NCBI RefSeq assembly: GCF_046105845.1
Contig: NZ_CP151004.1
Length of the DNA: 64,000 nt
Direction: 5' to 3' (one strand)
Source: Escherichia coli
GTDB taxonomy: Bacteria > Pseudomonadota > Gammaproteobacteria > Enterobacterales > Enterobacteriaceae
Below are positions 3,436 through 56,423 of the stretch, one piece after another (the stretch's first letter is position 1; the number at the start of each line of letters is the position of its first letter). Both the position numbers and the translations under genes were made by a program. Under the pieces are notes generated by a model. The model saw only the letters and a program-made list of their open reading frames with translations. It was not told the DNA's origin and searched no databases.

Positions 3436-3667
3436 CGTCATCCTCCAGTGGGATATCGCGATAGATAAATTTCACCATCGCCCAGCACAGTCCAATAAAC
3501 AGCAGCGGCGTCAGGATGCAGGCCATCTCAAACCAGCGCGGAAAGCCGGTAAAACCGGGGGCAACGCCAGGTAAGTAAGCGGCTACTAACCATACCGCCA
3601 GATACAAAAGGGTCAGCCCCAGCGCCCAGCGCGCCTCTTTATGGGCCTGAACAAAACGAGTGTCCAT
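3425..3667 (-). CDS. yhdT: small inner-membrane protein YhdT (DUF997)
   Basis: 80-aa ORF with two hydrophobic segments; overlaps the panF start as in K-12. Confidence 0.85.
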   Translation of the reverse strand: MDTRFVQAHKEARWALGLTLLYLAVWLVAAYLPGVAPGFTGFPRWFEMACILTPLLFIGLCWAMVKFIYRDIPLEDDDAA

Positions 3668-3731
3668 TTTTTGTCCCTGATGGGTGAAGAAAGCGGGGAT
3701 TGTACCTTATGGGGGTTGTCGATCCCCAGTA

Positions 3732-3758
3732 ATAAAAAAGGCCGGAAAATCCGGCCTT
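3732..3758 (-). terminator. rho-independent terminator downstream of accBC
   Basis: GGCCGG-AAAAT-CCGGCC hairpin followed on the minus strand by a T6 run, just after the accC stop. Confidence 0.75.
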
Positions 3759-3775
3759 TTGACGCTTTTGCAGTC

Positions 3776-6583: not shown

Positions 6584-7558
6584 TTAGTTAACCTTCACCA
6601 GCGTGCGACCCTGGATCTGGTTATTAATGATGGCCTCGGCAAATTTCGGTGCCTCTGCCAGAGATATCTCTTTTGCCGCCTGGGTATAGAATGATTCCGG
6701 TAAATCGGCGACCAGTCGCTGCCAGGCTTGTGCGCGGCGTGCTGGTGGCGTCATCACTGAATCCACCCCCTGTAAACGGACATTACGCAGAATAAATGGC
6801 ATGACCGTGGTTGGCAGAGTAAAACCACCCGCCAGACCACAGGCCGCCACGCAGCCGCCGTAATTCATTTGCGCCAGCACTTTTGCAAGCACTTTGTCGC
6901 CAACGGTGTCAATTGCCCCAGCCCAGACTTGTTTTTCCAGAGGACGGGATTCGGCAAACTCATCGCGAGGGAGAATACGGCTGGCACCTAAACTTTTCAG
7001 ATATTCATGGGTACTTTCGCGACCGGAAACGGCAACGACCTGATAACCCAATTTATGCAGCAGCGCCACGGCGGTACTGCCGACGCCACCACTGGCACCC
7101 GTCACGACAATCTCCCCATCCTGCGGGCGAACACCGGCATCTTCCAGCGCCATCACACACAGCATGGCGGTAAAACCGGCAGTACCGATAATCATTGCTT
7201 TACGCGCGTCCAGCCCTTGCGGCATGGCAACCAGCCAGTCACCTTTCACTCGCGCCTGCTCCGCCAGCCCACCCCAGTGGTTTTCACCAACGCCCCAGCC
7301 AGTGAGTAATACGTCCTGACCGGCATGAAAACGCGGATCTTCGCTGGTGCGTACAGTTCCGGCAAAATCGATCCCAGGAATCATCGGAAAATTACGGATG
7401 ATTTTTCCCTTACCGGTAATCGCCAGCGCATCTTTGTAGTTCAGGCTCGACCAGTGAACATCAACCGTGACATCGCCCTCCGGCAGGCAACTTTCGTCCA
7501 GAGTCTTTACCGATGCGAGAGTTTTGCCGTCCTGCTGTTCTAAAAGTAACGCCTGCAT
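6584..7558 (-). CDS. acuI: acrylyl-CoA reductase (NADPH), zinc-independent MDR family
   Basis: 324-aa ORF recognised as YhdH/AcuI, with a GASGGVGS nucleotide-binding motif. Confidence 0.9.
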   Translation of the reverse strand: MQALLLEQQDGKTLASVKTLDESCLPEGDVTVDVHWSSLNYKDALAITGKGKIIRNFPMIPGIDFAGTVRTSEDPRFHAGQDVLLTGWGVGENHWGGLAEQARVKGDWLVAMPQGLDARKAMIIGTAGFTAMLCVMALEDAGVRPQDGEIVVTGASGGVGSTAVALLHKLGYQVVAVSGRESTHEYLKSLGASRILPRDEFAESRPLEKQVWAGAIDTVGDKVLAKVLAQMNYGGCVAACGLAGGFTLPTTVMPFILRNVRLQGVDSVMTPPARRAQAWQRLVADLPESFYTQAAKEISLAEAPKFAEAIINNQIQGRTLVKVN

Positions 7559-7709
7559 AAGTGGTCCTCATGTGCATGATGGATTGGAAAATAATTTCTG
7601 AAGACTATACTCGCTAATGGAAAAGCAAAGCCGATGAAGCGCAATAAATTGCGAGATAAATCTGATTTGCTAGTATGCCCGCTTCCTCACTATCGGAGTT
7701 AACACAAGG

Positions 7710-9650
7710 ATGAGATTAACGACGAAATTTTCGGCCTTTGTTACGCTGCTCACCGGGCTAACAATTTTTGTGACTTTGCTGGGCTGTTCGCTAAGTTTCT
7801 ACAACGCCATTCAGTATAAGTTTAGTCATCGCGTTCAGGCGGTGGCGACGGCAATTGATACCCACCTTGTGTCGAATGACTTCAGCGCATTAAGGCCACA
7901 AATTACCGAATTAATGATGTCGGCAGATATCGTTCGTGTAGACCTGCTGCATGGTGATAAACAGGTATATACCCTGGCCAGAAATGGAAGTTATCGTCCG
8001 GTTGGCACCAGCGATCTGTTTCGCGAACTGAGCGTTCCGTTGATAAAGCATCCGGGGATGTCGCTGCGTCTGGTTTATCAGGATCCGATGGGCAACTATT
8101 TCCATTCGTTGATGACCACCGCGCCGCTCACGGGGGCGATTGGCTTTATCATTCTTATGCTCTTCCTGGCGGTACGCTGGTTACAACGGCAACTTGCCGG
8201 GCAAGAATTGCTGGAAACCCGGGCTACTCGTATCTTAAACGGTGAGCGTGGCTCTAATGTGTTGGGAACCATCTATGAATGGCCGCCCAGAACCAGCAGT
8301 GCGCTGGATACGCTGCTTTGTGAAATTCAGAACGCACGCGAACAACACAGCCGTCTTGATACGCTGATCCGCTCTTATGCCGCCCAGGACATGAAAACCG
8401 GCCTCAATAACCGACTCTTTTTCGATAATCAGTTAGCAACGTTACTGGAAGATCAGGAGAAAGTAGGTACCCACGGGATCGTGATGATGATTCGTCTACC
8501 GGATTTCAATATGTTGAGCGATACCTGGGGGCACAGCCAGGTTGAAGAACAGTTCTTCACTCTGACGAATCTGCTGTCGACATTTATGATGCGCTACCCT
8601 GGCGCACTGCTGGCGCGTTACCACCGCAGTGATTTTGCTGCGCTGTTGCCCCACCGGACGTTAAAAGAGGCTGAGAGCATAGCCAGTCAGTTAATCAAAG
8701 CCGTCGATACCTTGCCGAACAATAAAATGCTCGATCGCGACGATATGATCCACATTGGTATCTGTGCCTGGCGTAGTGGTCAGGATACCGAGCAGGTAAT
8801 GGAACATGCAGAGTCTGCCACGCGTAATGCGGGATTGCAGGGCGGCAATAGCTGGGCTATTTACGATGACTCGTTGCCTGAAAAAGGACGCGGTAATGTT
8901 CGCTGGCGTACGCTTATCGAGCAAATGCTGAGTCGCGGCGGCCCGCGCCTTTATCAAAAACCGGCGGTTACTCGCGAAGGTCAGGTTCATCATCGCGAAC
9001 TCATGTGCCGCATCTTCGATGGTAACGAAGAGGTTAGCTCGGCGGAGTATATGCCGATGGTCTTGCAGTTTGGCTTATCGGAAGAGTATGACCGCCTGCA
9101 AATCAGCCGTCTGATTCCACTATTGCGTTACTGGCCGGAGGAAAATCTGGCGATTCAGGTTACCGTTGAGTCGCTGATTCGCCCGCGTTTTCAGCGTTGG
9201 CTGCGAGATACGTTAATGCAATGTGAAAGATCGCAACGAAAACGCATAATTATTGAACTTGCAGAGGCCGATGTTGGTCAACATATCAGTCGCTTACAAC
9301 CTGTTATTCGTTTAGTGAATGCTTTAGGGGTACGGGTAGCCGTCAACCAGGCTGGTTTGACGCTGGTAAGCACCAGTTGGATCAAAGAACTTAATGTTGA
9401 GTTACTCAAGCTCCATCCGGGGCTGGTCAGAAACATTGAGAAGCGAACGGAGAACCAGCTGCTGGTTCAAAGCCTGGTGGAAGCCTGCTCCGGGACCAGC
9501 ACCCAGGTTTACGCCACCGGCGTGCGTTCGCGAAGCGAGTGGCAGACCCTGATTCAGCGCGGTGTTACAGGTGGGCAAGGGGATTTTTTCGCGTCCTCAC
9601 AGCCACTTGATACTAACGTGAAAAAATATTCACAAAGATACTCGGTTTAA
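7710..9650 (+). CDS. csrD: CsrB/CsrC sRNA turnover factor with degenerate GGDEF and EAL domains
   Basis: 646-aa ORF with two N-terminal transmembrane segments, recognised as YhdA/CsrD. Confidence 0.92.
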   Translation: MRLTTKFSAFVTLLTGLTIFVTLLGCSLSFYNAIQYKFSHRVQAVATAIDTHLVSNDFSALRPQITELMMSADIVRVDLLHGDKQVYTLARNGSYRPVGTSDLFRELSVPLIKHPGMSLRLVYQDPMGNYFHSLMTTAPLTGAIGFIILMLFLAVRWLQRQLAGQELLETRATRILNGERGSNVLGTIYEWPPRTSSALDTLLCEIQNAREQHSRLDTLIRSYAAQDMKTGLNNRLFFDNQLATLLEDQEKVGTHGIVMMIRLPDFNMLSDTWGHSQVEEQFFTLTNLLSTFMMRYPGALLARYHRSDFAALLPHRTLKEAESIASQLIKAVDTLPNNKMLDRDDMIHIGICAWRSGQDTEQVMEHAESATRNAGLQGGNSWAIYDDSLPEKGRGNVRWRTLIEQMLSRGGPRLYQKPAVTREGQVHHRELMCRIFDGNEEVSSAEYMPMVLQFGLSEEYDRLQISRLIPLLRYWPEENLAIQVTVESLIRPRFQRWLRDTLMQCERSQRKRIIIELAEADVGQHISRLQPVIRLVNALGVRVAVNQAGLTLVSTSWIKELNVELLKLHPGLVRNIEKRTENQLLVQSLVEACSGTSTQVYATGVRSRSEWQTLIQRGVTGGQGDFFASSQPLDTNVKKYSQRYSV

Positions 9651-18584: not shown

Positions 18585-18658
18585 TTTGACGAGGGCGCGT
18601 AATTGCCCCAATCTCATATGATAATCGTTGCCAAAGGCCAACGAGCCAGAACATAACC

Positions 18659-18692
18659 GTAGGCCGGACAGGGCGTTCACGCCGCATCCGGC
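18659..18692. repeat. REP (repetitive extragenic palindromic) element, single unit
   Basis: GTAGGCCGGACAGGGCGTTCACGCCGCATCCGGC, a near match to the E. coli REP consensus, in the yhdP-tldD intergenic region. Confidence 0.8.
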
Positions 18693-18724
18693 AGCCGTAA
18701 AAAATCCTCTACTGCAGTAACTAA

Positions 18725-39726: not shown

Positions 39727-40412
39727 ATGTCGTTACTTGCACAACTGGATCAAAAAATCGCTGCTAACGGTGGCCTGATTGTCTCCTGCCAGCCGGTTCC
39801 GGACAGCCCGCTCGATAAACCCGAAATCGTCGCCGCCATGGCATTAGCGGCAGAACAGGCGGGCGCGGTTGCCATTCGCATTGAAGGTGTGGCAAATCTG
39901 CAAGCCGCGCGTGCGGTGGTGAGCGTGCCAATTATCGGGATTGTGAAACGCGATCTGGAGGATTCTCCGGTACGCATCACGGCCTATATTGAAGATGTTG
40001 ATGCGCTGGCGCAGGCGGGCGCGGACATTATCGCCATTGACGGCACCGACCGCCCGCGTCCGGTGCCTGTTGAAACGTTGCTGGCACGTATTCACCATCA
40101 CGGTTTACTGGCGATGACCGACTGTTCCACGCCGGAAGACGGCCTGGCATGCCAAAAGCTGGGAGCCGAAATTATTGGCACTACGCTTTCTGGCTATACC
40201 ACGCCTGAAACGCCAGAAGAGCCGGATCTGGCGCTGGTGAAAACGTTGAGCGACGCCGGATGTCGAGTGATTGCCGAAGGGCGTTACAACACGCCTGCTC
40301 AGGCGGCGGATGCGATGCGCCACGGCGCGTGGGCGGTGACGGTCGGTTCTGCCATTACGCGTCTTGAACACATTTGTCAGTGGTACAACACAGCGATGAA
40401 AAAGGCGGTGCT

Positions 40413-40416
<4 letters not shown>
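39727..40416 (+). CDS. nanE: N-acetylmannosamine-6-phosphate 2-epimerase
   Basis: 229-aa product ([23 protein letters not shown]...) starting at the internal ATG. Confidence 0.93.
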
Positions 40417-41749
<1,333 letters not shown>

Positions 41750-41824
41750 ATTTATTAGATCAGGTGTGACCTGACCCATCTTTGGCACAGAGCCAAACCT
41801 GAACTGACGGACCGCTCTGTGCCA

Positions 41825-42130
41825 TTACCTGACGTTGTATTCTTTTATGTTAACACCCTTGATACTGTATATACCTGTCCGCTTAATTCGCTTGCCCTTT
41901 TTATTCGTAATAGTTGCTGTAAGTGTACTGCAGCGAATGGAATGACGTTCATCAATCACCAGCCGAATTGCTTCTGAAGCATCTTCCACCTCTAGAAGGT
42001 CGTGAGTCTTATTTAAGCCGAATGGAACAAGGTGGAAGGCCGTTTTTCCAGATGATTTTCTGGTTATTTTTACTGGATACAACACATCACCACTTTTATG
42101 GATTAATTCAAGCTGTTCAATGTAAATCAT
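41825..42130 (-). other. AT-rich degenerate ORF downstream of the yhcG-like fragment
   Basis: 101-aa ORF in the same frame as 42218-42574 but separated from it by two in-frame stops; markedly AT-rich; no motif recognised. Confidence 0.25.
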
Positions 42131-42217
42131 GGCAACTTTCCTTCGTTTATCTGCATGAATATATAAACCGAAAATAGGAGATGCAATACAAAAGCTGTGG
42201 AAATATCAAATAGCCTC

Positions 42218-42574
42218 TCAATTTGGCAGACAGCGTCTGCCAAATCTTTGCCGATGGGAATTCTGCAGAATTTCAACATGTTGATAAAAAAGGTAAAAAA
42301 GCTTCATTTGGCGTAAGTTTTTTGCAGAGACCCCACGTTTATACCGTCGACTTAAATCCTGCGATAACCGATCAATCAGCTGTGCAGCATAAGCCGCTCT
42401 TGCCTCGCCGCCTTGTTCAAATTCGACAATTCGTCGGCCAATTTCCCAGTATGTGGCGGTCATTAACGCGTTAACACTACGTACCGTTTCCGTCCGGGCG
42501 CTATCGACCAGGTGAATAATACCGTCGTGGATTTGCTGGTAGCCTGTTGAGGTTCTCTCTGAGAGCGATTCCAT
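42218..42574 (-). pseudogene. yhcG-like (DUF1016-family) N-terminal fragment, probably a gene remnant
   Basis: 118-aa ORF whose sequence (...VNALMTATYWEIGRRIVEFEQGGEARAAYAAQLIDRLSQDLSRRY...) resembles the N-terminal domain of YhcG/DUF1016 proteins; it ends in stops with no PD-(D/E)xK domain. Confidence 0.4.
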
Positions 42575-42727
42575 TATCTGTCCCTTTATATGGCGCTGCG
42601 TTGAATAATGGAATCAGCTATACGCCGGGCATCTACCGGTAACAATCCAGATGAGCGTATTACATTGGTTTTCTTCACATTATGCGAGGCACCTTCCAGC
42701 GAGGTGTCACGTTGTGGTGAAGATAAA

Positions 42728-42760
42728 TCAAAAAAGGCCGGAGCGGGCGTATCCGGCCAG
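42728..42760 (-). terminator. rho-independent terminator of the five-gene operon
   Basis: GGCCGG...CCGGCC hairpin 7 nt after the vWA gene stop, followed on the minus strand by a T6 run. Confidence 0.8.
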
Positions 42761-42765
42761 AATTT

Positions 42766-43935
42766 TCAGGCGGTTTCTCTTGCTGTCACTACGCCATTTT
42801 GCGCAGCCCACAGATTCACATCTTCCTTACGAATGGCGGCGGCCATCATGCCGGGGAATAAATCTGGGGTACAGGCAAAGGAGGGAATACCCATGGCGGC
42901 GAGTTTTCCTGCCAGTGACCGGTCGTAAAACGGCGCACCTTCATCGCTTAAGGCCAGCAGGGTAACCACCTGTACGCCGGACTGAATCAACTCACTGGCG
43001 CGTTGCAACAGATTGCGTTCCACCCCGCCTTCGTAGAGGTCGGAAATCAGCACCAGAATGGTATTGCGCGGATCGCGAATCAAAGACTGGCAGTAGCCCA
43101 CCGCGCGGTTGATGTCGGTGCCGCCACCCAGCTGTACGCCAAACAGCAGCTCTACCGGATCGTCGAGCTTCTCTGTCATATCAACGACTGCGGTGTCGAA
43201 AACCACCAGATGCGTTTTTACCGCCGGGAGCGATGCCATTACTGCGCCAAAAATACTGGAATAGACCACCGAGGAGGCCATCGACCCACTCTGGTCGATA
43301 CATAAAATGATCTCCTTTTGCGTGCGTTGAGACTTGCGCCCGTAGCCGATCAGCGTTTCAGGAACAATACTTTTATACTCTTCCTGCCAGTGGCGCAGGT
43401 TGGCGCGAATGGTGCGCTGCCAGTCAATTTCCGCGTGGCGCGGGCGACGATTACGTACCGCACGATTAAGAGCGCCGCTTACCGCGCTACGCATTGGCTC
43501 TTCAAGCTGTTTCATCAATTGCTCGACAACTTTACGCACCACAAGCCTGGCGGTTTCTTTGGTTTTGGCCGGAATTACGCCATTCAGCGACATCAGCGTG
43601 GAGACCAGATGAACATCAGGCTGGACGTTTGCCAGCATCTCTGGCTCCAGCAGCATACTGTGCAAATTAAGACGTTCAAAGGCGTCTTTTTGCATCACCT
43701 GAACCACAGAAGAAGGGAAATACTGGCGAATATCACCCAGCCAGCGAGCGACTTTGGGTGACGATCCACCCGTGCCGCCGCGTAATCCATGTTTACCGTC
43801 TGGCTGATAGAGCGCCGCCAGCGCGGCATCAATCGCGGACTCTCTGGCATCCAGCGCCACGTTACAGGCATTGTCGGCATCTTCTCCAAGGATCAGACGC
43901 CAGCGGCGCAGCCGTTCCATTTCGTTACTCGACAT
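42766..43935 (-). CDS. von Willebrand factor A (vWA) domain protein with an intact MIDAS motif; gene 5 of the operon
   Basis: 389-aa ORF with ILCIDQSGSM (DxSxS), a downstream GGGTD and LISDLYEGG; AAGGG Shine-Dalgarno; start overlaps the upstream gene by 11 nt. Confidence 0.8.
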   Translation of the reverse strand: MSSNEMERLRRWRLILGEDADNACNVALDARESAIDAALAALYQPDGKHGLRGGTGGSSPKVARWLGDIRQYFPSSVVQVMQKDAFERLNLHSMLLEPEMLANVQPDVHLVSTLMSLNGVIPAKTKETARLVVRKVVEQLMKQLEEPMRSAVSGALNRAVRNRRPRHAEIDWQRTIRANLRHWQEEYKSIVPETLIGYGRKSQRTQKEIILCIDQSGSMASSVVYSSIFGAVMASLPAVKTHLVVFDTAVVDMTEKLDDPVELLFGVQLGGGTDINRAVGYCQSLIRDPRNTILVLISDLYEGGVERNLLQRASELIQSGVQVVTLLALSDEGAPFYDRSLAGKLAAMGIPSFACTPDLFPGMMAAAIRKEDVNLWAAQNGVVTARETA

Positions 43936-46174
43936 GATTTTCCCTTTCGTGTGGTGGCAAAGCCAGAATGCGGCGCAGTAGCGGCAGCATTAACGCGGCA
44001 CGCTGTTCATCCCATATACCGCAGGTCTCTTCTTGCTGCGCGACACGCTCGCCCTGCGCGGCGCGTTCGCCTAACTGGCGGCGTTCCGGGCTGGAAAAAC
44101 GGCCGAATGTCCGCCGCAGCATCGGCAGGATCCGGGTGAAGTGATCGTCGTTCAGACCGCTTAGCCAGGCATCGATCAACTGCCATAATTCGCTATTGTG
44201 CAGTAGCACCATCGCGCTGTCGTTGAGGAAACCTTCCGCCCATGCGGCACTTTCCGCCGGGGGATTGGCTGGCGATAGCGCCAGGTTCATCAGCGTGGTG
44301 ATCCGTTCTGTCGTTAACGTTTGCAGATCAAACAGCAGGCGCGTCGCCGTTCCGCGAAGCAGCGCGTGTGCGGTACTGCCCTCTGCCAGCACCATCAACG
44401 CCTGCAACCAGCCCGCCAACAGATCTTCGTTATCCAGCAACCGCAGCGCGGCGTGGGCGTCGATAACTTTTTCTCTCATACTGGCGGCGCTGTCGTCGTT
44501 GAGCGCCGAACAGGCTCCGGGTAGGGCGATGGCGGCGCGCGGGGCGAGGCTCATCAGTACCTGCATTACCATACCAGAGTCGGTCTGGCGCACGTTGCCG
44601 TAGCGGACAATCGCCACCAGTGGTGCCAGGGATTCCAGCAACTGTTCGATATTGCCCTGAGTGGCAGCCAGTGATTCCAGTGTATTGGCGATGGGGGCAA
44701 TCGCGGTCTGTAAATCGGCCAGTAGCACCTGTTGGATAAGCTTTGCCAGTTCCGGCAGCGTGCTGGCGTATTGCGCCCTCACAATGGCATAGCGGGAGCT
44801 GGCCTGCTCAATGCTGTTACCCCAACGGCTGGCGGTAATGATGTTCATTGCCAGTGCCGGTTCCCAGCGCAGCGACCAGACTTCGTGGAACGTCCCTTTG
44901 CTGTTATTTCCTTGTCCAGCCAGACGGCCCCAGGGAATGTCGAGTAAGGTCAGGCGATGCAGTAAATGGCTACGCGCCAGATCGCCGGGGTTGCGCAGAT
45001 CAAGATCCAGCACTTTTTCGCTGGCTTCTGCCTTCAGGCGCAGCGTTTTTTGCTGTTGCGTAATGTCGCGTTGGAGCGGCACGACGGGCGTATCATCCGG
45101 TACGCTTCCCAGCGCGTAGCCGACAATTAACTTCTGGCGAATCATCTGCATTGGCGCGCTTTCGCCCATACACACTACGGTTTGCAGCGCTTCGCAAAGT
45201 TCGTCAAGCCCCGGCTGCGGGTGATGGCGCATAATCGCCAGCGTCTGCGCCAGCCGCGCCGCTTCGATAATGTGGGCGCTGGAACAGTCGAGATCGGCTT
45301 CGCGAAACAGCCTTGCCGCGCGTGACAGCCAGCCGATATCGCGGTGAGAAGCGCCCTGATAACGCCACAGATGATCGTACCATTCCGGTGACACCACCCC
45401 TGCGCCATAACCGCTGGCGCGGCTTAACGCCTCGTAGCTCCAGGGCGTCCAGGCTGCCGCGACCTTGCACTTCGGCAAATTTTTCAGCAGTTCGTTATCA
45501 TTCTTTGCGGGCGGCAGGTTTTCCAGCGCCGGAACGTGCCACGCACCGCAGACTACCGCGATGCGCGAGAAGCCCTCTTTTTTCGCCTGACGTAGCGTCT
45601 TGCGCATATACGCTTCACGCAGTTGATCTCTGGCTGAGTTTCGGGCTTCGGGAGTTGCCTGGCGTAGGGCAATCATCGCCTCGCGAATCGCCTCGAACAG
45701 AGACAAATCATCTTCGCGTTCCTCTACTCTGTGGCTCCACCAGCTTTCCCCATCGGTGTAACCGGCGGCGCGGCCCAGCCAGTCCAGCGGATCGCCGTCG
45801 GGACTGGCTTCAACGGCATCATCGTCATCGCTTTCTTTTTCGTCATCAAGCGCGAACTGATGACTGATGGGCAAGTCCATAAAGCGCACGGCGATATTTT
45901 GCTCAAAACCATAGCGCAGCGCCTGCCATTCCGGGGAGAACGCCGCAAAGGGGTAAAACGCGGCGTGATGTGAGTCGTCCGGGGCATAAATCAGTAGCGC
46001 GACCGGCGGTTGCATCTGTTCATGCTGCATGAAAGGCAGAATGGATTCGCCGTCGGGCGGCCCTTCCACCAGCAGGCAGTCGGGCTGTAGCGTCTCCAGC
46101 GCCTTTCGCAGGCTGCGCGCGCAGCCAGGGCCATGGTGACGGATGCCAAACAAATGAACGGTTTGTTCAGTCAT
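43925..46174 (-). CDS. large uncharacterised protein, gene 4 of the operon (from memory resembles DUF5682-type, YehM-like proteins; unverified)
   Basis: 749-aa ORF with E. coli-like codon usage, an AAGG Shine-Dalgarno 9 nt upstream and an internal acidic stretch (DDEKESDDDDAVEASPDGD); no catalytic motif recognised. Confidence 0.7.
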   Translation of the reverse strand: MTEQTVHLFGIRHHGPGCARSLRKALETLQPDCLLVEGPPDGESILPFMQHEQMQPPVALLIYAPDDSHHAAFYPFAAFSPEWQALRYGFEQNIAVRFMDLPISHQFALDDEKESDDDDAVEASPDGDPLDWLGRAAGYTDGESWWSHRVEEREDDLSLFEAIREAMIALRQATPEARNSARDQLREAYMRKTLRQAKKEGFSRIAVVCGAWHVPALENLPPAKNDNELLKNLPKCKVAAAWTPWSYEALSRASGYGAGVVSPEWYDHLWRYQGASHRDIGWLSRAARLFREADLDCSSAHIIEAARLAQTLAIMRHHPQPGLDELCEALQTVVCMGESAPMQMIRQKLIVGYALGSVPDDTPVVPLQRDITQQQKTLRLKAEASEKVLDLDLRNPGDLARSHLLHRLTLLDIPWGRLAGQGNNSKGTFHEVWSLRWEPALAMNIITASRWGNSIEQASSRYAIVRAQYASTLPELAKLIQQVLLADLQTAIAPIANTLESLAATQGNIEQLLESLAPLVAIVRYGNVRQTDSGMVMQVLMSLAPRAAIALPGACSALNDDSAASMREKVIDAHAALRLLDNEDLLAGWLQALMVLAEGSTAHALLRGTATRLLFDLQTLTTERITTLMNLALSPANPPAESAAWAEGFLNDSAMVLLHNSELWQLIDAWLSGLNDDHFTRILPMLRRTFGRFSSPERRQLGERAAQGERVAQQEETCGIWDEQRAALMLPLLRRILALPPHERENHVE

Positions 46175-46191
46175 AGTGGTTGCCTTGCTGA

Positions 46192-47286
46192 TTACACAAT
46201 TTCGCGGCAGGCGCGATAGAGATCGTTCCAGTCGCTGCGCTCTTTGACGATGGTTTCCAGATATTCACGCCATACCACGTCGTCCTGCACGGGGTCTTTT
46301 ACCACCGCGCCGACCAGGCTTGCGGCAATATCCCGCGGATGCAGTACGCCGTCGCCAAAATGGCCTGCCAGCGCCATACCGTTGTTGATAACGGAGATCG
46401 CCTCCGCGGTGCTGAGAGTGCTGGTTGGCGACTTAATTTTTGTTTTGCCGTCAACCGTCAGGCCGTTTCGTAGTTCGCGGAATATCTGCACGACTCGCTG
46501 AATCTCCTTTAATGCTGGTGGTTCGGCGGGCAGCGCAAGCGCCTGGCCGAGTTCAGCGACGCGGCGAGTGACAATGTTAATCTCTTCTTCTTCGCTGGCG
46601 GGTACGGGCAAAATAACTGTGTTGAAACGACGTTTAAGCGCGGAAGAAAGTTCGTTAACACCTTTATCCCGGTTGTTGGCGGTGGCGATAACGTTAAAGC
46701 CGCGCGTCGCCTGGACCTCTTCATTCAGTTCGGGGATAGGCAGCGTTTTTTCCGACAGGATCGTGATCAGCGTGTCCTGAACATCAGCAGGAATACGCGT
46801 CAGCTCTTCTACGCGTGCAATCTGCCCGCGCGCCATCGCCCGCATCAACGGACTTTCTACCAGCGCCGAACGTGACGGACCTTTAGAGAGCAACTCCGCG
46901 TAGTTCCAGCCATAACGCATTTGTTCTTCACCGGTGCCTGCGGTGCCCTGAATAATTAACGTTGAGTCGCCGCTGATGGCGGCCGCCAGATGTTCAGAGA
47001 CCCAGGATTTCGCAGTGCCGGGTACGCCATACAACAGCAGTGCGCGATCGGTTGCCAGAGTGGCAACGGCAGTTTCGATAATCCGCCGGTTGCCGATATA
47101 TTTCGGCGTGACCTCAAAGCCATTTTCCAGCTGCCCGCCCAACAGATAGGTGGCGACGGACCATGGAGAAATGGCCCAGTTTTCCGGGCGCGGATGAGTA
47201 TCGTTTTTTTGCAGCTCATCCAGTTCTTCAGCAAATTGTTGTTCGGCATGTCGGCGTAAAACGGCGGCAGTAGCGGTGGAAGTCAT
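46192..47286 (-). CDS. MoxR-family AAA+ ATPase, gene 3 of the operon
   Basis: 364-aa product from the ATG at 47286 (ATGA overlap with the upstream stop; GGAG Shine-Dalgarno). Walker A GVPGTAKS, Walker B region IARVEEL, sensor-1 NVIATANN, arginine motif ALKRRF. Confidence 0.85.
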   Translation of the reverse strand: MTSTATAAVLRRHAEQQFAEELDELQKNDTHPRPENWAISPWSVATYLLGGQLENGFEVTPKYIGNRRIIETAVATLATDRALLLYGVPGTAKSWVSEHLAAAISGDSTLIIQGTAGTGEEQMRYGWNYAELLSKGPSRSALVESPLMRAMARGQIARVEELTRIPADVQDTLITILSEKTLPIPELNEEVQATRGFNVIATANNRDKGVNELSSALKRRFNTVILPVPASEEEEINIVTRRVAELGQALALPAEPPALKEIQRVVQIFRELRNGLTVDGKTKIKSPTSTLSTAEAISVINNGMALAGHFGDGVLHPRDIAASLVGAVVKDPVQDDVVWREYLETIVKERSDWNDLYRACREIV

Positions 47287-48887
47287 AAAGTAGTTTCTCC
47301 GACAAAAAACGAATGAAGTTGAATTCGGTGCGCCAGCGTGGCGCTCAGGGCAGTAAAGGCTGCCTCGCAATAAGGCGTTTGTTGTGCGTCGTGCGGCCAC
47401 TTTTCAATGACATCATTGAGGACTTCGGGGGCCAGCAGGCAGGCGAAATCACTCATCACATGGCGCAGGGCGTAGTCAAAGCGCGCGGAATCATGTTTCA
47501 CCCAACGGTGCAGCTCCGTGACCATTTGCTGGCTCAGGCGCAGGCTAAAGAGCGACGCATCCGGCGGTAACAGGCTGATGTAGCGATGTAAATGTTCGCC
47601 GCCCACCACTGAGAACAATGACCGTAACATCGGCTCGTGTTCTTCTACAGGCAGACATTGCAAAAGCTCAAAGGCGTTAATCTTCACGCCTGCAGTATGA
47701 TGAATGCTCATTCCGACGGGCAGCATGGCGAGAAACGCCTGCGCCCACTGCGGATTTTTTTCGCGCAGTACGGCGTGATACCAGGCGCGCAGTAGCGCCT
47801 CCTGCCAGTCGGTTTTCCCGGCCCAGCGCAGCAGTTCAACGGGGGTAGCCTGCAGTTGCGTTTGCCACCAGTCGAGCGGAACCGCTGCAACTATCTGATA
47901 CAGCCACCATGCGCGCTGGCCCAACTTTTCGCCTTTGGGCTTAGTTTCTTCCAGCGCATCGGCCTTCCACTCTGGTAAGAACGCCTCCGGGGCATCAAGG
48001 GCGACGCGCAGCGTTTTTTCTCCGCGCAGTAAACCTTTTCGCCGCGCAAGCCAGCTCTCAGGATCGGGGGAGGAATTGAGCAGCGGCGCTAACCTGGACT
48101 TCATGCGCCAGACCCAGGCGCTTTCTGGCAGACAAAGCAGTAATCGTGCCGCAGTTTGCCGCACCTCTTTGCTGCGATCGGATAATGTCTGTTCCAGAAA
48201 GGCTTCGTCGTATTGGGAGATCTCCACTTCCAGCACAGCCAGCAGCTGTGCGCGTTCGCGGGCATCCAGCGAACTCATCTCCTGCGCCAGCCGATCGCGA
48301 CCCTGTTCCGGGGCGCGAATGCGCATTTGCGTCAGATATTGCAGACGCTGTTCGGACGTGCCGTGCAGCCACATTTCTTCATCCAGCGGAGCGTCAACGG
48401 AGGCAAGAAAATAGCGCCAGTCGGCGTTAATCTGCGCCAGCCAGCGCCCGCGAGCGCCGAGGACATTGGGCAGAATGCCGCGTATTGATGGATTTTGTAC
48501 GCCGTAATTCAGCAGTGCCGGTAACAGCAGGGGCGGAGAAAGAAGCTGACGCTGGACCAGGTGATCAAGCGCTGACCACAGTAAACGCGGCGGCCCTTCT
48601 GCCAGCAACAGATGCAGCAGTCCCGCAAAAGCCGGGTTGTTTATTGGCTCGGCATTTTCTTTATCGATTTCCGGCAGCGGTGCGGGGTCAATCGCCTGCG
48701 GCTCCCAGCCAGCCAGATGGCAGAGTGCCAGAACGCCCGCCGAGCGCAGTAGCTGTTGCTCTGCAGATGTGTTATTCGCCAGTTCAGACAGTAGCAGCCC
48801 AATCTCACTTTGCGACGCTGACGGTGTAAACGCTTTTTTGTCTGTGCCGAGTAGCGCTGTGCGGGTTAAATTTTTCCATTCGTTCAT
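47283..48887 (-). CDS. uncharacterised Leu/Trp-rich protein, gene 2 of the operon (from memory resembles DUF5691-type proteins; unverified)
   Basis: 534-aa product from the ATG at 48887 (ATGA overlap with the SWIM gene stop; GGAGG Shine-Dalgarno 8 nt upstream); the track ORF begins at an upstream TTG. Confidence 0.7.
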   Translation of the reverse strand: MNEWKNLTRTALLGTDKKAFTPSASQSEIGLLLSELANNTSAEQQLLRSAGVLALCHLAGWEPQAIDPAPLPEIDKENAEPINNPAFAGLLHLLLAEGPPRLLWSALDHLVQRQLLSPPLLLPALLNYGVQNPSIRGILPNVLGARGRWLAQINADWRYFLASVDAPLDEEMWLHGTSEQRLQYLTQMRIRAPEQGRDRLAQEMSSLDARERAQLLAVLEVEISQYDEAFLEQTLSDRSKEVRQTAARLLLCLPESAWVWRMKSRLAPLLNSSPDPESWLARRKGLLRGEKTLRVALDAPEAFLPEWKADALEETKPKGEKLGQRAWWLYQIVAAVPLDWWQTQLQATPVELLRWAGKTDWQEALLRAWYHAVLREKNPQWAQAFLAMLPVGMSIHHTAGVKINAFELLQCLPVEEHEPMLRSLFSVVGGEHLHRYISLLPPDASLFSLRLSQQMVTELHRWVKHDSARFDYALRHVMSDFACLLAPEVLNDVIEKWPHDAQQTPYCEAAFTALSATLAHRIQLHSFFVGETTL

Positions 48888-50206
48888 TGTGCGCCTCCGG
48901 TTGCCCAAATCACGCTACCGGCAAGCCAGGCGCTACAGGGCGTCAGTTGCTGACCGTCCCATTCCCCCATTAGCATAAACGGCGCGCCGCCGCTGGCAGC
49001 CAGTAACCGCCAACCCTCGTCCGATGACAGGAGCGTCGGTAAGTGCTGGCCCTGTGTCGAGACGAATCGCCAGCCGCTCTCGTGCGGGTAAATCAATATT
49101 TCGCTTACTCGCAGCGGCAGAGGCCATTGCCAGGGATTCGCGCTAAGCCGCTGCGCCATGTCATGCAGCGCGTCCGGGAGGGGTAATTCTGCAAGCGGGA
49201 ATCTTTCACCGCGGGTAAACGGCTCCACAACCCGCGCCCGTAGCGGTGATGCGCCAGGGAAAAAGGCAAGCGCGCCCTGGCAGACTTGCCCGGTGATAAA
49301 GTGCTGGGGAAAGTTTTTACCACCGTGTGAATAGTCCAGCAGTAGCGCGGTGCGGTGGCTCTTTTCTCCGTACAACCAGACCCGGCGTCGCCACAGATTA
49401 TTCTCTTCTTGCGCGCTTTGACCTAAGATCTGCCAGTTATCGAGGCAGGTTAATCCGTCAGTGACGTCGTGTTTTTCCGGGGGTATTCCCAATGCCGCAT
49501 GGAGATCGCTAAGTTGTGCCGGGGATAACATTTGTTGCTGGCGCCAGGCGTCAATAATCAGCTGTAGCTGCCCCAGTTCTTTGCACAGGCTCGATGGCCA
49601 TACCTCGGCGGTAGTAAAAAGAGTGGTCAGATTGTTCAGGCGAGCGGCAATTCCCGGTAGTTGGGCGTCGACCATGCGGGCGGCGATCCCGGCAAAAGGC
49701 AACTGTTGTGCAGAGATCTGCGCCAGACCGTGGCGGATCAGGTCGTGCATCCACTGTTCGAGGAAATCCAGCCCCGCCGTCATTTTTTGGTTACGTGCCG
49801 CTTCCCGTTTGGCGGCAGCCTGCGGGTCGGCAGCTTTTGCCTCAGCCTGCTCTTTCTTCTCTTCTTTGTGAACCGCCCGCTGCTGGCGCGAGGTTAGCCA
49901 CTCGCTTACCCATTCCGGCGGCTCGCCAGCGGTGAAACTTGCGGTGTGTTGCACCTGGAGCAAAAGCAACGCAAGGCTATGTTTACAGGGGAATTTACGG
50001 CTGGGGCAGGAACATTTACAGGCCAGATCCTGTCTGTCGATTCGTACCTGATAAGGGCGGGAGCCGCTACCTTTACACTCTCCCCAGAAGGCGGTCTCGC
50101 TATATCCCAGCGTCGGCCATTTTGCGGGGGCAACCAGGCCACGAGCCGCTTTAACCGAGGCGTCATCGGGCGCCAGGGCTTGCACTGATTCAACGGTCAG
50201 TTCCAT
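48884..50206 (-). CDS. SWIM zinc-finger domain protein, gene 1 of the operon
   Basis: 440-aa ORF with a CxCxnCxH motif (CKCSCPSRKFPCKH) near residue 60, then a Lys/Glu/Ala-rich charged linker and a C-terminal domain of unknown function. Confidence 0.8.
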   Translation of the reverse strand: MELTVESVQALAPDDASVKAARGLVAPAKWPTLGYSETAFWGECKGSGSRPYQVRIDRQDLACKCSCPSRKFPCKHSLALLLLQVQHTASFTAGEPPEWVSEWLTSRQQRAVHKEEKKEQAEAKAADPQAAAKREAARNQKMTAGLDFLEQWMHDLIRHGLAQISAQQLPFAGIAARMVDAQLPGIAARLNNLTTLFTTAEVWPSSLCKELGQLQLIIDAWRQQQMLSPAQLSDLHAALGIPPEKHDVTDGLTCLDNWQILGQSAQEENNLWRRRVWLYGEKSHRTALLLDYSHGGKNFPQHFITGQVCQGALAFFPGASPLRARVVEPFTRGERFPLAELPLPDALHDMAQRLSANPWQWPLPLRVSEILIYPHESGWRFVSTQGQHLPTLLSSDEGWRLLAASGGAPFMLMGEWDGQQLTPCSAWLAGSVIWATGGAQ

Positions 50207-50398
50207 TACAATTCTCTATTGGCGTGGGGAAATCGATGGGGTCAAGGAGGCGTTAAGCAAAGCAGGAGGAGACTGTTTTCCGTAACAGCGTATTGCGCGT
50301 CCATCGCAAATTTGTAGTGAGTATAGCGGGCGGTAAATTCAGGAAACAATGGCGGATAGCGGAAAGTGTAGTTTTTCGGAAAAAGATAACTTTATCCC

Positions 50399-50431
50399 GT
50401 GTAACCCGTTTTAAGCGGGCTACACGGGAGG
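50399..50431 (-). terminator. strong hairpin immediately downstream of gltD (probable terminator)
   Basis: 13-bp stem CCCGTGTAGCCCG / CGGGTTACACGGG with one G-U pair, starting 8 nt after the gltD stop; the U-tract is displaced about 12 nt. Confidence 0.5.
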
Positions 50432-50438
50432 CTGCAAT

Positions 50439-51869
<1,431 letters not shown>

Positions 51870-54800
51870 TTACTGCGCCTGCACGCGCAACTCTGCTGCG
51901 CTACGACTACGGTGACCCAGCAGTGCTTTTACATCACTGGACTTCGGTTTAACCAGCGCGAATTTCGTGGCGAAGGTTGACCAGTTCGCCAGAATCTCTT
52001 CACCGCGCTGGGAACCGGTATGCTGCACATGCTCGGTGATAAGACCGCGCAGATGCTCTTCATGGATCGCCAGATCGTCAACGCTTAAGACCTCGACCAG
52101 TTCCGGGTTAACGCGTTTGCGGAAATCGCCGCTTTCATCGAGAACGTAAGCGAAGCCTCCGGTCATACCCGCGCCGAAATTCACGCCGGTTTTACCCAGA
52201 ATACAGACAATACCGCCCGTCATATATTCACAGCCATTATCGCCAATGCCTTCTACCACGGTGATAGCACCGGAGTTCCGCACGCCGAAACGTTCACCCG
52301 CGCGGCCTGCGGCATACAGACGACCACCGGTCGCGCCATACAGGCAGGTGTTGCCGATAATACTTGCTTCATGGCTGCGGAAGGCTGAGCCAACCGGAGG
52401 GCGAATGGCGATTAAGCCGCCCGCCATGCCTTTACCGACATAGTCGTTGGCATCACCGGTCAGGTACAGTTCCACGCCGCCCGCGTTCCACACACCGAAG
52501 CTCTGGCCTGCGGTGCCGTTGAAGTACGCTTTGATCGGATCGGCTGCCAGACCCTGATCGCCGTGCGTCTGGGCGATATAGCCTGAAAGCGACGCGCCGA
52601 CAGAACGGTCGGTGTTGCGAATATCGAACCAGAAGGTTTTGCTCTGACGCTCATCGACAAACGGTTTTGCCTGTTGCAGCAACTGTGCGTTCAGCAGGCC
52701 GTTATCAAACGGCGGGTTGTTTTCGGTACAGTAGAGCGCCTTACCTGGATGCGGCTCAGCGGTCTCCAGCAGTTTCGACAGCGCCAGTTTCTGCTGTTTG
52801 GCGGTGAAACCGTCCAGCTCTTTAAGCAGGTCGGTGCGACCAATCAGATCCACCAGCCGCGTTACCCCCAGCTGTGCCATCAGCTCGCGGGTTTCACGTG
52901 CGATAAACTCAAAGTAATTGGTCACCTTGAACGGCAGGCCGTGATAGTGATTCTTACGCAGTTTGTCATCCTGAGTTGCAACACCCGTCGCGCAGTTGTT
53001 CAGATGGCAAATACGCAGATATTTACAACCGAGCGCCACCATCGGGCCAGTGCCGAAGCCGAAGCTTTCTGCGCCGAGAATCGCCGCTTTGATGATATCA
53101 ACGCCGGTTTTCAGGCCGCCATCAACCTGCAAACGGATCTTATGACGCAGACCATTGGCAACCAGCGCCTGTTGGGTTTCAACAAGCCCCAGCTCCCACG
53201 GACAGCCTGCGTATTTCACCGATGAAAGCGGACTTGCGCCGGTGCCGCCGTCATAGCCTGCGATGGTGATTAAATCGGCATAAGCTTTTGCCACGCCAGT
53301 CGCGATGGTGCCTACGCCTGGTTCGGAAACCAGCTTCACGGAGATCATCGCTTTTGGATTGACCTGCTTGAGGTCGAATATCAGCTGCGCTAAATCCTCG
53401 ATAGAGTAGATATCGTGGTGCGGCGGCGGGGAGATCAGCGTCACTCCGGGCACCGAATAGCGCAGTTTGGCAATGTAAGGAGTGACTTTATCACCCGGCA
53501 ATTGACCGCCTTCGCCCGGCTTCGCGCCCTGGGCGACTTTAATCTGAATGACGTCGGCATTGACCAGGTACGCCGGAGTAACACCGAAGCGACCGGACGC
53601 CACCTGCTTGATGCGCGACACTTTGTTAGTGCCATAGCGCGCCGGGTCTTCACCGCCTTCGCCGGAGTTTGAGTTACCGCCGATGCTGTTCATCGCTTCC
53701 GCCAGCGCCTCGTGGGCTTCCGGGCTTAACGCGCCGATAGACATCGCGGCGGTATCGAAGCGTTTAAACAGTTCGCTTGCCGGTTCAACATCAGCAATGT
53801 TGACCGCGTTTTCACCCGGCGTAATTGCCAGCAGATCGCGCAGCGTGGTTGCCGGACGCTCATTAACCAGCTTCGCGTATTCCTGATAGTCGCTATACTC
53901 GCCGCTTTGTACCGCCTGCTGCAGTGTGCGCACCACGTCCGGGTTGTAGGCGTGGTATTCGCCGCCGTGCACGTATTTCAGCAGGCCGCCCTGGCTGATG
54001 GGCTTGCGCGCCAGCCAGGCACGTTTCGACAGATTCAGCAGATCCTGCTGGAAGTCTTCAAAGCTCGCCCCGCCAATGCGGCTAACCGCGCCCTGGAAGC
54101 ACAGGCCTACGACATCATCGTGTAGACCGACCGCTTCAAACAGTTTCGAGCAGCGGTAAGAGGCGATGGTGGAGATGCCCATTTTGGACATGATTTTGTA
54201 CAAGCCTTTGTTGATGCCGTTACGGTAGTTGAGCATCACGGTACGATAATCTTTGGCAATCGCGTGGGTGTCTACCAGGCGGCCCAGCGTTTCATAGGCA
54301 AGGTACGGATAAATAGCCGTCGCACCGAAGCCCAGCAACACGGCGAAGTGGTGCGGATCACGGGCGCTGGCGGTTTCGACGATGATGTTGGCATCGCAAC
54401 GCAGGCTTTGCTCGACCAGACGGGTCTGGATCGCGCCAACCGCCATCGGGGCTGGAACCGGCAGGCGATCTTTAGCGATATTCCTGTCGGAGAGCACCAG
54501 CAACACGGTGCCGCTACGTACCATTTTTTCAGCTTTGTCGCACAGCTCTTTGACCGTCGCTTCGAGCGTGGTTTTGGTGACGTCAAAGGTGATATCCAGT
54601 GTATCTGCGCGGTAGTGCTCCTCTTTCATCGTCGTGAGCTGTTTGAAATCGGAGTAGAGCAGAATCGGCGATTTAAAACTTAAACGGTGCGCCTGGCCCT
54701 CTGCTTCACAGAAGACGTTCATTTCACGCCCGATGCTGGTGGCGAGCGACATAACATGCGCTTCACGCAGTGGGTCGATTGGCGGGTTGGTGACCTGGGC

Positions 54801-56423
54801 AAATTGCTGGCGGAAGTAATCGTAAATAATGCGCGGCTGACTGGAGAGCACGGCGAATGGGGTGTCGTCGCCCATCGAACCGACCGCTTCCTGACCGTTT
54901 TCGCCCAGTACGCGAATTACGGAGTCCAGCTCTTCCGCGCTGTAGTTAAACTGTTTCTGGTAGCTGGCAAGTGTGTCGTCGTCCAGTTCGCGGCTACCTA
55001 CTTCTTCATCGGGCAGATCTTCAAACGGTACCAGTCGGCGGACGTTTTTCTCCATCCACTCTTTATATGGATGGCGGCTTTTCAGATCGTCATCGGTTTC
55101 TGCCGAGTGCAGAATACGCCCACTGCGGGTGTCGATAACCATCAGTTCGCCTGGCCCGACGCGGCCTTTTTCGACCACTTCGTCAGGCTGGTAATCCCAG
55201 ATACCGACTTCAGAGGCGCAGGTGATGAGCTTATCTTTGGTGATGACGTAGCGCGCCGGACGCAGACCGTTACGGTCGAGGTTACAGGCAGCGAAGCGAC
55301 CATCGGACATCACGATGCCCGCCGGACCATCCCACGGCTCCATATGCATGGAGTTAAAGTCAAAGAAGGCACGCAGTTCCGGGTCCATATCCGGGTTGTT
55401 CTGCCAGGCGGGTGGTACTAACAGACGCATGGCGCGGATGATATCCATCCCGCCTGCCAGCAGCAGTTCCAGCATGTTATCCATCGAACTGGAGTCAGAA
55501 CCGGTTTCGTTGACGAACGGCGCGGCGTCGTGCAGGTCAGGGATCAGCGGCGTCTGGAATTTATAGGTACGTGCGCGCGCCCATTGGCGGTTACCGGTGA
55601 TGGTGTTGATTTCACCGTTATGCGCCAGGTAGCGGAACGGCTGCGCCAGCGGCCAGCGCGGTACGGTGTTAGTGGAAAAGCGCTGGTGAAACAGGCAGAT
55701 GGCCGATTCCAGACGCAGGTCCGCGAGGTCCAGGTAGAAGCGCGGCAGATCCGCCGGCATACACAGACCTTTATAGATGTTCACCAGATTCGACAGGCTA
55801 CAGACGTAGAAGTCTTTGTCGGCTTCGAGACGCTTTTCAATGCGGCGGCGGGCGATAAACAGACGGCGCTCCATATCGCGCGGACGCCAGCCTGCCGGGG
55901 CGTTCACAAAAATTTGCTCAATGCGTGGCAGAGAGGAGAGGGCGATTTCACCCAGCACGCCTTCGTTAGTGGGGACATCACGCCAGCCCACAATCGACAA
56001 CGTTTCGCGTTGCAGCTCTTCTTCAACGATGTGGCGTGCGGCAGCAGCGAGTTCAGGATCTTTATTCAGGAATAGCATCCCGACGGCGTAGTTTTTTGCT
56101 AAACGCCAGCCGCGCTCCTGCGCAACGATGCGAAAAAAGCGATCCGGTTTTTGTAACAGCAAGCCGCAACCGTCACCGGTTTTACCATCGGCGAGAATCG
56201 CGCCACGGTGCTGCATGCGGGCCAGTGCGTGTATTGCAGTACGCACTACCTTGTGGCTAGGTTCGCCTTCTATGTGGGCGATCAGGCCGAAACCACAGTT
56301 ATCCCTCTCAAGGGATTTATCGTACAACATATCGTGAACCTCCCCCAGGCTCTGCGGGAACCCCACTTCCGAACCGCTGCGCACGGGCACAGAAAGAGCG
56401 TGGCGACGGGGGTTGCGTGTCAT
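51870..56423 (-). CDS. gltB: glutamate synthase large subunit
   Basis: About 1517-aa product from the ATG at 56423 ([14 protein letters not shown]...), including the propeptide before the Cys of [11 protein letters not shown]. Confidence 0.96.

Follow-up and report, generated by a model that had tools for sequence, protein, structure and literature searches.

Several described molecular machines pair an AAA_5 ATPase with a protein of the von Willebrand factor A (VWA) type, and in NorQ-NorD, CbbQ-CbbO, CoxD-CoxE, RavA-ViaA and Midasin/Rea1, docking through a metal ion-dependent adhesion site (MIDAS) is combined with ATP-driven remodelling. MoxR ATPases have been viewed as chaperone-like (PMC3893208). 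In Escherichia coli K-12, the MoxR-type gene yehL and its neighbour yehM are repressed by H-NS/StpA (PMC3686432), and the yhc fimbrial locus, which K-12 carries next to gltD, has been reported in phylogroup A strains only (PMC5216030). Here we describe a five-gene operon, hereafter the cassette, that occupies the interval between gltD and nanQ (yhcH) in a 64,000-nucleotide stretch of E. coli DNA (the window; contig NZ_CP151004.1 of assembly GCF_046105845.1). We consider it likely that this interval is a two-slot, multi-allelic locus, that the cassette is an old resident of it, and that the cassette is a coupled operon of the YehL-subfamily MoxR-VWA kind.

Alignment of the whole window to K-12 MG1655 placed it at 3,347,055-3,411,041 (ptsN to dusB) with 98.0-98.5% identity, the gltD-nanQ interval being the sole exception, and the gene order is collinear with K-12 on both sides, as an earlier note made from the window's sequence had stated. 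The K-12 order assumed in that note, gltB-gltD-gltF-yhcA-yhcD-yhcE(IS5)-yhcF-yhcG-nanQ-nanK, is correct, and its claim that the fimbrial genes are missing holds for the entire 64 kb, in which tblastn with the K-12 proteins GltF, YhcA, YhcD, YhcE and YhcF returned chance matches only (best E 0.05). Thus, no usher (YhcD), chaperone (YhcA) or subunit (GltF, YhcF) of a K-12-type yhc fimbrial locus was found by tblastn anywhere in the window, and the same search recovered NanK at 96.9% identity to K-12 and both GltD and NanQ at the identities given in Table 1. Pfam and tblastn searches also bear out the five-gene operon and the yhcG-like fragment that the note had placed between nanQ and gltD. The alignment to K-12 and to other E. 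coli genomes that the note had proposed mapped the breakpoints and counted both alternatives. Specifically, the K-12 blastn alignment ends at the stop codon of gltD (50439), which marks the right breakpoint, and the left breakpoint follows position 42699, with K-12 homology picking up again approximately 114 bp upstream of yhcG. Compared with genomes in which gltD directly adjoins yhcG (O157:H7, TKEC21-59), the operon segment (42700-50438, 7,739 bp) stands in place of approximately 60 bp.

Across 5,426 complete RefSeq E. coli genomes, the locus is found in several states, as expected from the variable locus suspected in the note. A direct gltD|yhcG junction is present in 3,141 genomes (~58%) and a direct gltD|nanQ junction, with the two genes 67 bp apart, in 947 (~17%; e.g. 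ATCC 11775 and IMT5155), whereas the K-12 gltF-yhcAD segment occurs in 1,293 (~21-24%; almost complete in 1,120 of them and ≥99% identical in 1,288) and the cassette in 33 (0.6%), always as one copy and on the chromosome; the four counts together amount to 5,414, and the percentages are not population frequencies because complete genomes are biased to K-12 derivatives and clinical clones. The cassette adjoins gltD in each locus inspected, and it is paired with three different alleles on the nanQ side, namely an intact yhcG (N96 type, 4 complete genomes), the SMS-3-5 type (29 complete genomes) and the truncated type of the window. The AT-rich segment next to nanQ in the window (Table 1) likewise recurs as an allele of 99% identity in 717 of the 5,426 genomes, at one or two chromosomal positions in each genome, and adjoins nanQ in all instances inspected; the yhcG side varies independently, being an intact yhcG, a truncated yhcG with a 101-aa open reading frame (ORF), the SMS-3-5 type or nothing. 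The window's own combination of the cassette and a truncated yhcG is carried by none of the 33 complete genomes and is present in draft assemblies, one contig of which is 99.985% identical to the window across 20 kb; these matching drafts show that the arrangement is real and belongs to a natural lineage. An assembly artefact was ruled out, as more than 24 draft contigs share the junctions seen in the 33 complete genomes. Taken together, the interval consists of two adjacent slots, slot A directly past the gltD stop codon and slot B beside nanQ. Slot A is empty (the common state) or holds either gltF-yhcADEF or the five-gene cassette; slot B is empty or holds an intact yhcG, a truncated yhcG with the 101-aa ORF, or two other small ORFs. 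The word "replaced" fits only when K-12 is the sole genome compared, and the two cargoes are independent alternatives for one slot.

Five co-directional minus-strand genes fill 42766-50206, with Pfam domains, listed from the gltD end, SWIM, DUF5691, AAA_5, DUF5682 and VWA_CoxE (Table 1). The ATPase ATG (47286) overlaps the DUF5691 stop codon (ATGA), a similar overlap links DUF5691 to the SWIM gene, and the VWA gene overlaps the DUF5682 gene by 11 bp; the operon is tight and probably translationally coupled. Start codons were taken from homologous RefSeq loci, where the ATPase is likewise 364 aa long, because the mechanical ORF list over-extends two genes (the ATPase to a GTG at 47400). Eight nucleotides past the VWA stop codon lies a terminator-like hairpin. 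Judged by its domains and sequence similarities, the cassette encodes a YehL-subfamily MoxR AAA+ ATPase together with a VWA/MIDAS partner. In searches of Protein Data Bank (PDB) sequences, the ATPase matched the AAA domains of Midasin (E 1e-15) as well as NorQ (E 5e-6), and the translation of the VWA gene reads the MIDAS-type motifs DQSGS ... GGGTD ... SD.

Downstream of gltD, direct folding reveals a hairpin at 50395-50429 (-26.7 kcal/mol, z -5.8). The earlier note had read this hairpin as one kept from K-12; the hairpin does exist, but K-12 homology ends at the gltD stop codon and the sequence differs. In fact, there are three unrelated post-gltD hairpin sequences, one per allele class: GCCAGAC...GTCTGGC in K-12 and B2 strains, CAGCGCCG...CGGCGCTG in O157-type strains and CCCGTGTAGCCCG...CGGGTTACACGGG in operon carriers. 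Because the K-12 hairpin is that of the "empty" B2 allele, the fimbrial cluster appears to have come into an empty-type background. The hairpin lies in the 232 bp that separate gltD from the SWIM gene, a spacer that presumably carries the operon promoter and the 5' untranslated region. Among four operon alleles with 1.8-2.5% divergence elsewhere, this spacer does not vary (100% identity); a reading of it as a constrained regulatory RNA was dropped, because a 500-bp coding stretch within the DUF5682 gene (45194-45694) is equally invariant in the same four alleles. A permissive Rfam scan of 41700-50500 gave no match, and the promoter/terminator scan missed both this hairpin and the one at the operon end, which were found by direct folding.

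The cassette is also found in Klebsiella huaxiensis, in the order gltB-gltD-[same five genes]-nanQ-nanK-nanE-nanT-nanA-nanR-sspBA. Between the window and K. huaxiensis, DNA identity is 74.6% for the operon, 74-77% for the nan genes and 85% for gltBD, and protein identity is 94% for the ATPase, 89% for VWA, 76% for DUF5682, 68% for SWIM and 56% for DUF5691, with the flanking proteins at 62-94%. Within E. coli, we compared the alleles of the window, N96, SMS-3-5 and O158:H23, all of which are intact. Synonymous divergence (dS) among these four operon alleles is 0.01-0.2, and that of gltD and gltB is 0.12-0.22. The ratio of nonsynonymous to synonymous divergence (dN/dS) is 0-0.06 for the ATPase, 0.03-0.14 for VWA, 0.14-0.39 for SWIM, 0.16-0.45 for DUF5682 and 0.25-0.54 for DUF5691, and the cassette genes in E. 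coli are under purifying selection. Divergence is mosaic: blocks of 250 bp in the DUF5691 and ATPase genes reach 8-12% and alternate with invariant stretches, which is a signature of recombination among old alleles. Additionally, the composition of the operon (GC 57.7%, third-position GC (GC3) 60-67%) is not distinct from that of the flanking core genes gltD and gltB (GC 0.555-0.571, GC3 0.63-0.66), and only the 470-bp AT-rich segment deviates (0.40). In line with an exchange of old haplotypes through the flanks, the 98-99% identity to K-12 gives way to 95.5-97% over the 2-6 kb that flank the locus on either side (40000-42000 and 50439-56000), and the slot flanks (nanK-nanQ and gltD-gltB) bear unusually old or recombinant haplotypes. 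Taken together, the synteny and divergence in K. huaxiensis, the divergence and mosaicism of the E. coli alleles, the composition and the drop in flank identity favour long residence. We propose that the cassette is probably an old resident of gltD-nanQ that E. coli shares with K. huaxiensis and that most lineages of E. coli have lost, that homologous recombination in the flanking gltBD and nan genes has carried it from one background to another, and that the K-12 fimbrial cluster is an independent occupant of the same slot.

Two other histories were weighed. One is that the cassette is a recent genomic island that integrated downstream of gltD, site-specifically or illegitimately, and displaced the prior content. 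Its rarity in E. coli (33 of 5,426), its GC content above the window average (57.7% against 52%), its presence at another locus in a different enterobacterium and its patchy occurrence over phyla, with ATPase (~60-83%) and VWA (~52-80%) identities that suggest long-term horizontal spread, would all suit such an island. However, dedicated scans detected none of the expected traces, in agreement with the earlier note, which had spotted no integrase, tRNA, insertion sequence (IS) element or flanking direct repeat: there is no tRNA gene in 36-57 kb, direct or inverted repeats across the interval are at chance level only (14-25 nt) with none at the breakpoints, and every ORF in 41750-50438 is accounted for, with no integrase, recombinase domain or IS element among them. 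GC and GC3 resemble those of the adjacent gltBD and nanEK, the dS among alleles in E. coli is similar in size to that of the flanking core genes, with a mosaic structure, and K. huaxiensis holds the cassette in the same position with flank-like divergence. Close-identity plasmid copies are lacking, plasmids carrying only distant homologues (<60% identity, mostly on megaplasmids), and phages have essentially none, a single metagenomic fragment matching among 50,697 records. We therefore regard a recent island as improbable. The other history, a one-event replacement of an ancestral gltF-yhcADEF by the operon, or of the operon by the fimbrial cluster in K-12, draws on the nearly identical interval, in which the left breakpoints lie a few bases apart upstream of yhcG and the right one is the gltD stop codon in both, and on the similar sizes of the two cargoes (7.7 kb for the cassette, 7.1 kb for the K-12 cluster). 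Against it, approximately 75% of genomes carry neither cargo, and the K-12 post-gltD hairpin matches the empty B2-type allele rather than the operon allele. In addition, the K-12 cluster is at least 99% identical in the 1,288 genomes counted above and is reported from phylogroup A only (PMC5216030), and this near-invariance and restriction point to a late, lineage-specific gain. A single replacement thus has very little chance of being correct. Of the note's proposal that the module was either gained or ancestral and then replaced in K-12, the old or ancestral origin is favoured and the replacement is not, since most strains carry neither cargo.

Several observations weigh against a two-slot locus with an old, coupled YehL-type cassette. 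Synteny in one other genus is no proof of vertical descent, and an ancient transfer of a gltD-cassette-nan block, or re-insertion at a favoured site, may give the same picture. A scan of species-representative genomes by exact peptide patterns returned no Enterobacteriaceae, and in another enterobacterial lineage the cassette, 65% identical, lies between ygjQ and ygjR, so that it has relocated at least once. The genome sample behind the allele counts is skewed, as stated above. As for the operon itself, the promoter scan detected no consensus sigma-70 site on the minus strand of the gltD-SWIM spacer, the Walker-B position of the ATPase reads VEE instead of the usual DE, and the YehL subfamily, one of seven in MoxR, has no characterised member (PMC3893208), which bears on any function assigned to the cassette.

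Table 1. Features of the gltD-nanQ interval and its flanks (positions in the 64,000-nucleotide window)
Feature	Position	Strand	Remarks
nanQ (yhcH)	41285..41749	+	Conserved left flank; 97.4% aa identity to K-12 NanQ; K-12 homology ends at 41750
AT-rich segment	41751..42220	.	470 bp, 40% GC; replaces the 3' two-thirds of yhcG
101-aa ORF in the AT-rich segment	41825-42130	-	39% GC; RefSeq label "transposase"
yhcG 5' fragment and upstream region	42221..42699	-	ORF 42218-42574, limited to the DUF1016 N-terminal domain; left breakpoint at the right end of this region
Operon terminator-like hairpin	42730..42758	-	Stem 42736-42758, then U6 at 42730-42735; GGCCGGA...UCCGGCC; -15.8 kcal/mol, z -2.7
VWA_CoxE protein, 389 aa	42766..43935	-	Pfam PF05762 E 3.6e-52, PF13519 E 1.4e-6; paralogue of K-12 YehP
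DUF5682 protein, 749 aa	43925..46174	-	Paralogue of K-12 YehM
AAA_5/MoxR-type ATPase, 364 aa	46192..47286	-	Pfam PF07728 E 1.9e-38; P-loop GVPGTAKS
DUF5691 protein, 534 aa	47283..48887	-	Pfam PF18944 E 5e-121; ATG at 48887, overlapping the stop codon of the SWIM gene
SWIM zinc-finger protein, 440 aa	48884..50206	-	Pfam PF04434 E 1.3e-6; C65-x-C67-x6-C74-x-H76 invariant in the alignment
gltD-to-SWIM intergenic region	50207..50438	-	232 bp; contains the hairpin 50395-50429; right end is the right breakpoint
gltD	50439..51857	-	Conserved right flank; 99.8% aa identity to K-12; all other allele types realign exactly from its stop codon

In slot B of the window, tblastn with YhcG aligns residues 1-105 at 87% identity (42260-42574) and residues 120-135 at 100%. 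The fragment matches the PADLOC model PDC-S02 (E 1.9e-30) over the N-terminal part only. Intact yhcG alleles bear PF17761 and PF06250, whereas here the C-terminal YhcG_C nuclease domain of this DUF1016 PD-(D/E)XK nuclease is gone, the AT-rich segment taking the place of the C-terminal two-thirds. Within the fragment, a 49-bp stretch (42221-42269) is 100% identical to K-12 and N96 and the remainder (42262-42699) is 85-89% identical to K-12, with approximately 44 bp of K-12 sequence missing between the two pieces; the join resembles a small junction left by mosaicism or deletion. Searches of Pfam, NCBIfam and PHROGs gave no match to the 101-aa ORF and lend its RefSeq label no support. The SMS-3-5-type allele, present in SMS-3-5 and 28 further genomes, holds a 41-aa DUF1016 remnant and two unannotated hypothetical ORFs of 190 and 48 aa (locus 3114-3801). 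Elsewhere in the window, the tldD-yhdP intergenic region (18635-18698) is approximately 150 bp shorter than in K-12, where 3,392,133-3,392,344 is without counterpart, and this length difference is probably a repeat-element indel.

The remaining cassette proteins were searched against PDB sequences, and SWIM, DUF5691, DUF5682 and VWA gave no matches. An AlphaFold2 model of the SWIM protein (predicted local distance difference test score, pLDDT, 89.7) shows beta-rich C-terminal domains, with weak fold matches to OB-fold proteins (E 5e-3 to 0.1) and to ZSWIM8 across the SWIM region. Of the five cassette proteins, DUF5691 is conserved least. The DUF5682 protein appears to consist of an N-terminal TIKI/TraB-like domain and a C-terminal helical-repeat scaffold of approximately 450 residues. 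In particular, two GxxH motifs, G10-H13 and G210-H213, are invariant across 72 sequences including YehM, as are E37, E82, D100, E151, R171, R186 and E187. The DUF5682 profile matched neither TraB nor any other Pfam family or PDB chain apart from DUF5682 itself, and its sole PDB hit, CHRAC-14, was judged spurious and rejected as a relative. Scans of the cassette proteins against NCBIfam and PHROGs were uninformative apart from weak P-loop hits, MadB and GvpN below the cut-off and, for DUF5682, one PHROG without an assigned function. Two of the 33 carriers (EC17CM2, locus 7449-8246, and e1-39, H63) have a deletion of approximately 297 bp in the ATPase gene, which leaves 265 instead of 364 aa, and their other four genes are intact.

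The ATPase is 41% identical to K-12 YehL (E 6e-77), DUF5682 is 27% identical to YehM (E 7e-41) and VWA is 37% identical to YehP (E 3e-79). Judged from these similarities, K-12 yehLMP is distantly paralogous to the cassette, whose ATPase falls in the YehL subfamily of MoxR. The five-gene order is kept in approximately 28 of 33 loci from species-representative genomes of at least 10 phyla or classes, including Allochromatium, Pseudomonas oryzagri, Aquabacterium, Mailhella, Verrucomicrobiota, Bacteroides and Alistipes as well as Chloroflexota, Planctomycetia, Armatimonadota, Obscuribacterales, Thermoanaerobaculia and Propionibacteriaceae. Cross-phylum identity to the window is approximately 60-83% for the ATPase, approximately 52-80% for VWA, 37-58% for DUF5682, 29-48% for SWIM and 26-38% for DUF5691, and no conserved neighbour genes surround the cassette in these 33 distant loci beyond close relatives. 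Clustered at 50% identity, the homologues of DUF5682 (E up to 1e-3) fall into at least 4,434 groups. Within the enterobacteria, the ygjQ-ygjR interval is a second chromosomal home of the cassette. The copy between ygjQ (DUF218) and ygjR was seen on Enterobacteriaceae metagenome contigs, adjacent to a HicB-like antitoxin gene, and its cluster includes an Enterobacteriaceae metagenome-assembled genome; a neighbouring, similarly distant cassette cluster includes Superficieibacter electus. Within the literature library that was searched, no paper mentions DUF5682 or DUF5691, and the whole-word matches to "YehL" were mostly the author name Yehl and were set aside.

What the cassette may do can be outlined by analogy with the described pairs. 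The MIDAS site of the VWA protein would dock an acidic residue of a client, and the AAA_5 ring would spend ATP to remodel or extract the docked client. DUF5682 may add a TIKI/TraB-like, possibly metal-dependent hydrolase domain on its helical scaffold, the SWIM zinc-finger protein would be the likely recognition subunit and DUF5691 a further adaptor, and the fast-evolving SWIM and DUF5691 proteins may confer specificity. Tentatively, and with low confidence, we suggest that the cassette could be an undescribed ATP-driven machine in which MIDAS-mediated target capture is coupled to regulated proteolysis or remodelling, possibly in conflict or defence. A narrower view, that it is specifically a conflict system against phages or other mobile elements, with SWIM and DUF5691 as sensors and a TIKI/TraB-like proteolytic effector gated by MoxR-VWA, seems unlikely to us. 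It would account for a sporadic, accessory cassette in a hypervariable slot whose neighbour yhcG is a candidate defence gene in PADLOC (PDC-S02), for its self-contained nature with no conserved neighbours, and for the fast evolution of DUF5691 and SWIM (dN/dS up to 0.54, blocks of 8-12%, and 26-48% cross-phylum identity against ~60-83% for the ATPase); moreover, a description of other MoxR-vWA ternary systems as conflict systems that depend on NTP is mentioned in PMC10910872, and H-NS/StpA silence the paralogous K-12 genes yehL and yehM as they do foreign genes (PMC3686432). Yet no cassette protein matches a model of PADLOC-DB v2.0.0, four of them giving no match at all and the ATPase only a sub-threshold IetA P-loop (E 1.5e-3, no stretch passing), dN/dS is below 1 throughout, no nuclease, toxin or membrane effector is recognisable among the products, and the cassette is kept at one chromosomal site in two genera. 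A literature search for a description of the gltD-nanQ locus as a defence hotspot returned nothing relevant.

The polymorphism of the locus is routine pan-genome variation for E. coli, and the cassette is the more interesting part. For the locus, a K-12-centred view is corrected, in that the fimbrial cluster is a lineage-specific oddity and most strains hold nothing there. For the cassette, a new and tractable member is added to an uncharacterised but already catalogued family, whose order of five genes stays constant in many phyla, from Proteobacteria to Bacteroidota, Chloroflexota and Actinomycetota, and whose ATPase and VWA cores are unusually conserved. Its natural presence or absence at one site, with SMS-3-5 as a sequenced carrier, together with the carriers of ATPase deletions, provides a genetic system for YehL-type MoxR-VWA. 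If the cassette does encode an ATP-driven machine, the E. coli allele would offer a route to the function of both the cassette and the orphan K-12 yehLMPQ.

Compared with the other occupant of slot A, the beta-class chaperone-usher cluster gltF-yhcADEF of K-12, the cassette shares the slot and nearly the same breakpoints, but the content is unrelated, and the K-12 cluster is nearly invariant whereas the cassette is rare, diverged and mosaic. The closest relative by content is K-12 yehL-yehM-yehP(-yehQ), which has a homologous three-gene core in the same relative order (ATPase, large protein, VWA), and YehM aligns with DUF5682 over the invariant GxxH motifs. Both clusters include a SWIM-domain protein, yet the cassette has SWIM and DUF5691 as separate genes upstream of the ATPase, whereas in K-12 the lone SWIM protein YehQ follows yehP, and the yeh cluster lies at metG-btsSR instead of gltD-nanQ. 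YehQ was rejected as a fusion of SWIM and DUF5691, or as the corresponding type of partner, with hhalign probabilities of 0.5% (SWIM) and 0.15% (DUF5691) and only the SWIM motif in common. Since the three-gene core is shared and SWIM and DUF5691 are unrelated to YehQ beyond the zinc-finger motif, the cassette represents a distinct architecture.

With respect to its putative hydrolase, the TIKI/TraB/PrgY/ChaN superfamily, as reportedly defined by Bazan et al. (2013) and Sanchez-Pulido & Ponting (2013), comprises putative metalloproteases and haem-binding proteins with a GX2H motif pair. DUF5682 resembles these proteins in its widely spaced GX2H pair with conserved acidic and basic residues, and unlike them it has the domain fused to a helical-repeat region of approximately 450 residues. 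Finally, like NorQ-NorD, CbbQ-CbbO, CoxD-CoxE, RavA-ViaA and Midasin/Rea1, the cassette combines an AAA_5 ATPase with a MIDAS-bearing VWA protein; unlike the characterised MoxR-VWA pairs, it has no linked client enzyme gene, and its SWIM, DUF5691 and DUF5682 partners are without counterpart in those pairs.

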